Part shown: positions 33,955 to 34,116 of the stretch, one piece after another
How the letters are laid out: every line of letters begins with the position of its first letter
How positions within the stretch are numbered: the first letter of the stretch is position 1
Assembly (NCBI GenBank): GCA_964016885.1
Contig: OZ024754.1
Span: forward strand, 7,750,001-7,814,000
DNA from: Eledone cirrhosa
Lineage: Eukaryota
Length of the DNA stretch: 64,000 nucleotides
Reading direction: 5' to 3'
Notes under the pieces: generated by a model
What the model saw: only the letters and a program-made list of their open reading frames with translations
What the model was told of the DNA's origin: nothing
The model's database searches: none
Made by a program: the position numbers and the translations under genes

Positions 33955-33963
<9 letters not shown>

Positions 33964-34114
33964 TAAACAAATAATGAATAAAACAATGAAACAGTTCCTT
34001 ATATTAAACAAAAAAAGTTCATTATTTAACGATCGTTTCTAGGATATATATGTGTTAGAATTGGCATGCATATTCAACAGATCTATGTACAAAATTATTG
34101 GTAGATTTATCTAC

Positions 34115-34116
<2 letters not shown>
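33955..34116 (+). mobile_element. Miniature copy of the Naiad PLE at 43094-52873
   Basis: Inverted arm starts at the same base (ataaaatattaaac) and is joined to the last ~19 nt of the pLTR (tggtagatttatctacata). Confidence 0.9.

Follow-up and report, generated by a model that had tools for sequence, protein, structure and literature searches.

Penelope-like elements (PLEs) are described as forming partial tandems with an inverted 5′ copy and as carrying a tail of 30 to 40 bp that is often confined to one end, and Hydra elements insert into (TA)n (PMC8557442, PMC3846280). The choice of internal start sites and the formation of the inverted pLTR in PLEs are stated as an open question in PMC8557442. 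The closest biochemical work concerns PAc, the Poseidon element of Anolis carolinensis (Frangieh et al. 2024, PMC11167929), whose protein cleaves and extends both target strands in vitro and starts RT at two internal RNA sites that bound the tail, with no homology between RNA and target and no strand difference in the start site used. The later steps of integration were left unvalidated in that paper.

Our analysis of the window (the whole 64-kb stretch of DNA considered here) revealed an element of this kind, a mini-copy of it and further two-armed insertions. A first-pass annotation had proposed that such copies are bounded by two fixed priming points. The feature is real; its fixed ends correspond to the known tail, and the core idea is largely known from another clade. 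The new part, as read from the sequence, is a putative paired hairpin signal together with the apparent use of one site per strand. The name of the element and the paired hairpins go beyond the first-pass annotation.

The full element and its mini-copy

The full element spans 43094-52873 when its inverted arm is included. On the minus strand, after a TA-rich microsatellite, lies a tail-less inverted arm of 2971 nt (43094..46064), the reverse complement of 49757-52736, which apart from its edges differs from the template by one substitution and three small indels in simple repeats. All further parts are on the plus strand. The pLTR, an upstream tandem copy of 332 nt truncated at its 5′ end (46065..46396, equal to 52542-52873), precedes a unit of 6477 nt (46397-52873), which comprises an intact ORF of 813 amino acids (46553..48994), a microsatellite-rich 3′ region of 3.5 kb (48995..52527), a predicted hammerhead ribozyme (52528..52682) and a tail of 137 nt running from the internal to the terminal site (52737..52873), followed by a TA-rich microsatellite. 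The predicted ribozyme has a 10-bp stem I, its core at 52538, GAAA at 52661 and a predicted cut after 52672; the fold of this region has a z-score of −6.9, and that of the tail is not significant (z of −1.45). At the join 46064-46065, the pLTR is cut off inside the hammerhead core (52542-equivalent), a 7-base match is common to both templates, and the junction is 5 bases short of a clean join. Among the public-run matches listed, no read or contig confirmed this junction.

The ORF encodes RT, a CxCx5C linker and, at its C terminus, a GIY-YIG-type nuclease. Its motifs lie at residues 37-39 (RWR, where the alignment consensus is RWK), 115 (DKT), 345 (LYRDD), 673 (CxCx5C), 707 (YIG), 771 (CxxC) and 799 (CxH), and the nuclease residues R/H/E/N are conserved. 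CCHH is absent, the two far-apart cysteines before YIG being unconserved in the alignment. Among 7999 scored candidates, 118 homologues were found, and a row-by-row comparison by eye revealed a resemblance to the published Hydra proteins in the supplement of PMC8557442. A Pfam scan of the ORF gave no significant match and two sub-threshold ones only, and a PDB profile search gave a weak match to a retron RT (E of 0.009). No hammerhead was among the Rfam matches listed (150 of 299), and the miRNA and snoRNA matches in that list were rejected as below gathering scores and situated on palindromes and (TA)n.

The features of PLE membership are present, namely, an ORF with RT and GIY-YIG, a pLTR, an adjacent inverted 5′-truncated copy and a predicted hammerhead in the pLTR. 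Those of the Hydra clade are present as well: the C-terminal nuclease, RWK/DKT, CxCx5C, CxxC and CxH around E and N, and insertion into (TA)n. The short length of the clade (<3 kb) is not matched by the 6477-nt unit; it is given as a general Hydra trait and no criterion (PMC8557442). By its sequence, the element belongs to the Hydra clade of Penelope-like retrotransposons. The stretch of 137 nt from one fixed point to the other is the known Penelope tail, because a one-sided end tail, an inverted 5′ copy and (TA)n targeting are described PLE features; the tail is one-sided here too, yet its 137 nt exceed the 30 to 40 bp described for PLEs. The protein scan of viral contigs yielded no relative, the exact pattern of family B (the only family in the window with an ORF) gave 0 stretches in metagenome contigs, that of family A gave 0 stretches in viral contigs, and no tRNA genes were found in the window.

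Alignment of the mini-copy confirmed the earlier claim that it shares both its start base (52736) and its 3′ base (52873) with the large copy. Bases 33955-34098 (144 bases) are the reverse complement of 52736-52602 with three substitutions and nine extra bases; this tail-less inverted arm (33955..34098, minus strand) runs backwards from the internal site (52736-equivalent), across the predicted hammerhead cut, as far as the 52602-equivalent. The remaining 34099..34116 matches 52855-52873 on the plus strand and is a tail remnant, the final 18 to 19 nt, that stops at the terminal site and runs into (TA)n, and (TA)n tracts flank the mini-copy on both sides. The inverted arm of the full element begins at 52736 as well; the odds of the inverted starts coinciding are approximately 1/6500 across the unit and 1/137 across the tail. 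The nine extra bases are a subfamily trait, as an insertion at this place occurs in 167 reads of X17 and one contig of X4, two of the public runs described below. The mini-copy thus belongs to a different subfamily and constitutes an independent insertion; because its 9-base insertion marks another subfamily, it is not derived from the full element. Both fixed points are repeated in the pLTR, the internal one at 46259 and the terminal one at 46396, where downstream element sequence can be read.

Two-armed insertions and their ends

We aligned four public runs to 46000-46600, among them X17 (raw RAD reads, 6630 aligned) and the contigs of X1 and X4, the latter bearing another organism label. 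At the terminal site, 637 X17 reads carried a loose end of (TA)n consensus behind 46396. Across this position, X17 depth fell about ninefold, from ~890 to ~97, in RAD reads that may represent few loci, and X1 contig depth, which is not copy number, fell ~150-fold, from 299,326 to 1,954. Among the rows listed, the X17 loose ends bear on the terminal site; the sharpness of the internal site comes from X4 and X1 contigs. One X4 contig (depth of 106) aligned to 46234 and continued for 34 further letters, the 30 listed being the 9-base insertion plus reference, and thus ended at the 46259-equivalent. The X4 tail contig (depth of 43, falling to 7.6 past the terminal site) opens with a 30-nt overlap, presumably what k-mer assembly gives at a graph branch. 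One X1 contig stops exactly at 46259. Both ends are therefore sharp in samples beyond the window, and the random distribution of inversion starts that the first-pass annotation had named as refuting its proposal was not seen. Bins 46441-46503 and most read joints were discarded as (TA)n cross-mapping. A joint at 46133/46261 (72 reads, 1 start), whose orientation is ambiguous, would fit a first cDNA halting at the second site.

In the single 64-kb window, we delimited by hand 24 two-armed insertions from approximately 11 families. Of these, 23 were measured by script and the full element separately, and the mini-copy and the insertion at 11690 were classed by eye; the one-armed pieces at 23853, 24982, 31797, 35731, 56455 and 62741 were excluded. 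Families other than B were called PLE from their architecture and from hammerhead-like motifs seen by eye. A separate inverted-repeat scan of the window found no further two-armed insertions.

The tail is present on exactly one arm in 20 of the 24 insertions, the internal site is used twice in two (9688 and 55248) and a single site is used twice in another two. Were each arm to choose independently, at most half of the insertions would be mixed (P = 8 × 10−4 for 20/24, or 1.3 × 10−3 for 19/23 when a mirror pair of copies counts as one event), which suggests paired use of the two sites. A MITE or foldback DNA transposon was rejected, as the arms of the mini-copy do not overlap and the tail is one-sided in 20/24, so that there are no TIRs at both ends. 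In seven insertions (33955, 9848, 28428, 28739, 58162, 29025 and 31990), the tail-less arm reaches further inward, a reading taken from alignments with other copies or from the direction of the hammerhead, with an indecisive score for 31990 and with the mirror pair 28428/28739 scored against each other. Because of this inward extension, the tail-less arm is not a simple copy-back of the tail-bearing arm. The tail arm is longer in two insertions (43094 and 61446), and the remainder are symmetric or could not be oriented. The youngest three copies with a one-sided tail are symmetric (32283 and 10851) or have a longer tail arm (43094); the seven with a longer tail-less arm are more diverged, and later central deletions could be the cause.

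Family A bears out only in part the claim that its copies share both named outer ends. Both are found in the insertions at 9418, 11690 and 58686, whereas 24982 and 56455 have one named end each and 9688 has the internal end twice. The 79-nt tail of 9418..9614 is on the left arm, as are the internally deleted tail of 11690..11809 (classed by eye; one base changed in its ends) and that of 58686..58822, which has a symmetric centre. In the related copy 37403..37596, the tail is on the right arm. Module 1, one of two hairpin modules introduced below, is present in the tails of 9418, 58686 and 37403. In 9688..9820, both arms end internally without a tail, and the centre (9732-9765) contains the terminal start's opening 34 nt, as if the first cDNA had jumped sites.

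Family C comprises 9848..10170, with the tail on one arm and the tail-less arm longer centrally; a mirror pair at 28426..29025 sharing one centre, possibly one event, with a one-sided tail each; 58162..58379, with a one-sided tail and module 1; and the related 31985..32237, with a one-sided tail and a degenerate module. The mirror copies are arranged around (TA)8 and are 86% alike. One-sided tails also occur in family F at 23533..23714 and, with module 1, at 58394..58586; a third family F copy (55248..55345) has both arms without a tail. Families K (1774..2066) and H (32716..33014) have one-sided tails with module 1, as does family I (61446..61647), where the module is clearer in the one-armed copy 31797-31927. 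One-sided tails without a module characterize family G (29026..29241, and 32283..32681 with arms identical at 161/161 positions), family D (39 nt, 10851..11245) and family L (42 nt, 7790..8129). Across the window families other than B, tails measure 39 to 113 nt. Inspection by eye of four family C and G copies showed the arm with the tail ending within approximately 3 nt of the predicted hammerhead cut (28474-28562, 28893, 58310 and 29124), as if the cDNA had halted at the ribozyme or the template had been cleaved RNA.

Families E and J depart from this arrangement. The family E copy (35155..35774) has symmetric arms, an inversion that passes via (TA)n and takes in 54 nt of what appears to be host flank, and a short second 3′ piece; the flank has no other occurrence in the window. 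Its simplest reading is probably fold-back into host flank, and it suggests that fold-back and a second priming are possible within one insertion. The family J copy (38322..39030) contains the 310-nt tandem unit that the first-pass annotation had cited for fixed points on TA-like bases. The unit does end at the motif quoted there (38716 and 39026), but both arms start at this single site, so that it does not exemplify two points. At 38621-39030, the unit is present in identical tandem copies, contains an internal (AT)4 and a motif resembling a hammerhead, and is retrozyme-like.

At the internal site, the bases shared with (TA)n averaged 2.8 nt over 11 families, compared with backgrounds of 1.7 nt for a better target phase (P = 0.014) and 1.0 nt for a random phase (P = 0.0003), in agreement with the proposal that the fixed points fall on TA-like bases. 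The accompanying expectation of variable inner junctions with microhomology fared less evenly: the centres do differ among copies, but loops measure at most 9 nt in 9 of the 24 centres, and two family B centres show exact microhomology of 0 and 1 nt. The arms overlap in 23 of the 24 insertions, the mini-copy being the exception.

The window contains other repeats. A dispersed repeat of ~190 nt, 80 to 98% alike, without (TA)n flanks and SINE-like by appearance, is found at 6869-7223, 14492-14828, 17602-18118, 19032-19224, 22002-22191, 27363-27563, 61109-61293 and 62940-63143. A second one, of up to 555 nt and ~95% alike, adjoins (ATGT)n at 5332-5884, 23969-24247 and 40605-41160. A 200-N assembly gap (3485-3684) adjoins a long TA tract, and long ORFs within TA tracts were set aside as reading-frame artefacts.

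Predicted hairpin modules beside the putative start sites

Closer inspection of related loci revealed a recurrent motif before the ATG, N-CTC-Y...R followed by a 2-base bulge and GAG-N′-RC. It was compiled from 77 metagenome loci, obtained by keeping the best 80 of 453 matches. Where 150 nt or more lie upstream of the ORF (44 loci), two modules precede it in 25 (0.8% of shuffles) and at least one does so in 37 (12% of shuffles); some of the loci that miss the pair are permuted contigs with the pair in mid-contig. A strict scan of the 77 loci found 115 modules in sense and 10 in antisense, the antisense ones lying in part within inverted elements nearby. The outer pair, chosen blind to pairing, is Watson-Crick in 74 of 82 cases (64 G-C, 6 A-T and 4 T-A), and we read the eight misses as mostly wrong partner choices; the inner pair was itself part of the scoring and carries no independent weight. 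Pair counts were made by script, as MAFFT left the 5′ halves of the modules unaligned.

In the full element, module 1 (ACTC...TT bulge-GAGT, with a long inner stem) occupies 46264..46347, with a second copy at 52741-52824, and module 2 (GCTC...TT bulge-GAGC, with a loop of ~110 nt) occupies 46402..46526, both on the plus strand. The pairing of module 2 is proposed from the motif; it is missing from the MFE fold, and the z-score of the region is not significant. The loop of module 2 is filled by a GT...AG intron-like stretch (46439-46517) whose last AG lies inside the predicted stem; were this an intron, splicing would disrupt module 2, which is perhaps relevant to intron retention in PLEs. In family B, 4 nt separate the internal site from module 1 and 5 nt separate the terminal site from module 2, which stops 26 nt before the ATG. 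In families A, C, F, H, I and K, the tail opens with module 1, in some cases degenerate, 3 to 18 nt past the internal site. With relatives included, the putative start sites lie 2 to 18 nt ahead of a module; the scan of the window found no module in families G, D, L and J. Taken as the spacing between modules, the tail would measure 55 to 70 nt in most relatives; it is long (137 nt) in family B because its module 1 has a long inner stem.

The same geometry was found at the ends of relatives that are only 35 to 45% identical in protein. All 12 mappable ends, five of them read by eye, fall 2 to 11 nt before a module, six before module 1 and six before module 2. These comprise eight (TA)n ends (two corrected by eye) and the ends of a second element in L020 and of L013, L050 and L053; the L013 end has a non-TA flank, and those of L050 and L053 are inverted-arm starts. 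The joint chance of this spacing is ~3 × 10−5 for the five loci with a known search interval. From 53 raw end matches, 45 had been dropped (44 microsatellite self-matches in L016 and one internal TA tract in L001), leaving eight usable loci. The published Hydra-2_Amil consensus in the supplement of PMC8557442 has one copy of the module at its 3′ end. In five relatives, (TA)n directly precedes module and ORF (L007:455-472, L016:952-965, L017:654-663, L019:2994-3009 and L024:974-987), an order that would represent unit-length copies or assembly paths through TA.

Origin of the fixed ends and relation to known systems

We consider it probable that the fixed ends result from twin priming directed by the hairpins, with one start site per nicked (TA)n strand, a reading that rests on comparison of sequences. 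The RNA would fold both modules, and the RT-nuclease, probably a dimer as predicted for PAc, would take up one module per subunit, an arrangement that would yield one site per strand. Each target 3′ end would come to lie a few bases 5′ of its module, aided by UA-like pairing of 1 to 6 nt; one strand would prime at the terminal site and copy the tail, and the other would prime at the internal site and skip it. The two cDNAs would stop at variable, often near-equal points and then be end-joined into head-to-head arms, one of which carries the tail, with a tail length set by the spacing between the modules. The template overlap between arms would need two RNAs or strand displacement, and we infer that both primings belong to one event. 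Programmed twin priming at two RNA sites, as put forward in the first-pass annotation, is thus supported by the sharp ends, by the one-sided tail in 20/24 and by the seven longer tail-less arms. Against the reading as a whole stand the nine near-symmetric centres, the four insertions without a one-sided tail, the symmetric or tail-longer state of the youngest copies, the likely fold-back at 35155-35774, the module-less families G, D, L and J, the missing module 2 pairing in the MFE fold, the non-significant fold of the tail and the lack of strand difference and target homology in PAc.

Near-symmetric centres of this kind would also arise if priming occurred only at the terminal site, the 3′ end of the cDNA snapped back and copied itself, and a nuclease, reading the module as DNA, trimmed the product at the internal site before it was joined to the other target end. 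Besides the short loops in 9/24 centres, the duplicated and inverted 54 nt of apparent flank in 35155-35774 suit such a course, and there is published support for its parts: the tail has been ascribed to nuclease resolution (PMC8557442), palindromes occur at inverted junctions (PMC3846280) and PMC11167929 cites the tail as required for recognition by the nuclease (Pyatkov 2004). We nevertheless regard this course as unlikely, as the tail-less arm has sequence absent from the tail arm in seven insertions including the mini-copy. Furthermore, both sites share the same module geometry, yet module 2 lies outside any cDNA that starts from the terminal site, which argues for a start signal read on the template rather than on the inserted DNA. 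The outer pair shows compensatory changes, which speak for a single-stranded structure, and in vitro the RT of PAc starts at both tail ends (PMC11167929).

If both strands are primed at real RT starts, each might still choose its site independently, the one-sided tail then reflecting sampling or survival bias. The start site of PAc shows no strand difference in vitro (PMC11167929), the internal site is used twice in 9688 and 55248 and a single site twice in two other insertions, and tail/tail insertions, being longer perfect palindromes, might be lost or misassembled. Yet 20 of the 24 insertions are mixed (P = 8 × 10−4 against the most favourable independent model), and the inverted-repeat scan gave no extra two-armed insertions; independent choice therefore appears quite improbable to us. 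Inheritance of the ends, with mini-copies arising as internal deletions of older head-to-head insertions or inverted units moving whole, we hold to be slightly less probable still. Long inverted repeats are prone to central deletion, and the two family C copies at 28426-29025 have one common centre. However, the mini-copy and the full element belong to different subfamilies, the centres vary among the copies of families A, F and G, the end-module geometry is repeated in relatives 35 to 45% identical in protein, and deletion leaves the fixed original ends unexplained.

Returning to hairpin-directed priming, we advance a broader version of it tentatively and with a little more doubt than belief: in the Hydra clade, two RNA start signals in tandem, assigned to one subunit each of an RT-nuclease dimer, would programme priming on both strands, so that an inverted insertion with a one-sided tail is the normal product and the tail is the spacing of the hairpins. 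If true, the tail, the inversion and the predicted dimer would be joined in one mechanism, an annotation rule for Hydra ends would follow, and the result would be relevant to the question of how a template is positioned by telomerase-related RTs in the absence of long primer pairing; builders of RNA-templated insertion tools may also take an interest. Without the hairpin result, the locus would be an ordinary PLE insertion. The short duplicated motif, which keeps a constant distance to either end, offers a concrete target for mutagenesis in an available assay format, and the young, intact ORF of the window could be used in such assays. In the titles and abstract openings searched, which included few subscription papers, we found no description of paired hairpins or of twin priming for PLE inversions, and the passages of PMC8557442 that we consulted do not mention paired modules; Fig. 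S2C of PMC11167929, on RNA folding, may bear on the novelty of the hairpins.

The inversions recall those of L1 in outline, and the arms here often overlap by tens to thousands of bases around a point that is fixed and common. In L1, both strands reportedly prime on the element RNA and give a 5′-inverted insertion (twin priming, said to go back to Ostertag and Kazazian in 2001). The second priming point of L1 is said to be opportunistic and used in a minority of copies, with inverted and direct parts that do not overlap. L1-type twin priming was rejected for the present copies, as their fixed point and the overlap of the arms in 23/24 contradict a variable point without overlap. The non-LTR retrozymes regarded as PLE derivatives (10.64898/2026.07.22.740005) are likewise short, hammerhead-bearing, non-autonomous copies, and the 310-nt unit at 38621-39030 is similar to them; they form tandem arrays, whereas most copies here are head-to-head and two-armed.

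The Hydra clade (Craig et al. 2021, PMC8557442), with Hydra-1_Obim and Hydra-2_Amil, shares with the present element RW(K/R), DKT, CxCx5C and CxxC/CxH, a single ORF, a hammerhead near the 3′ end, the (TA)n target and a partial tandem with an inverted 5′ copy. Its members are generally <3 kb, in contrast to the 6.5-kb unit with a 3.5-kb 3′ region found here, and the tails described for PLEs measure 30 to 40 nt, compared with 137 nt here and 39 to 113 nt in the other window families. PAc resembles the present system in its two internal starts bounding the tail, the cleavage and extension of both strands, an AT-rich target and a predicted dimer, and the genomic ends described here are consistent with internal initiation of the PAc type. 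The starts of PAc lie inside the ORF, 30 to 40 nt apart, whereas those found here are upstream of the ATG; PAc has neither target homology nor strand preference, whereas short TA homology and apparently paired sites are seen here. Finally, the main text of PMC11167929 connects the starts neither with inverted insertions nor with an RNA element that is duplicated, whereas here each start precedes a repeated hairpin.
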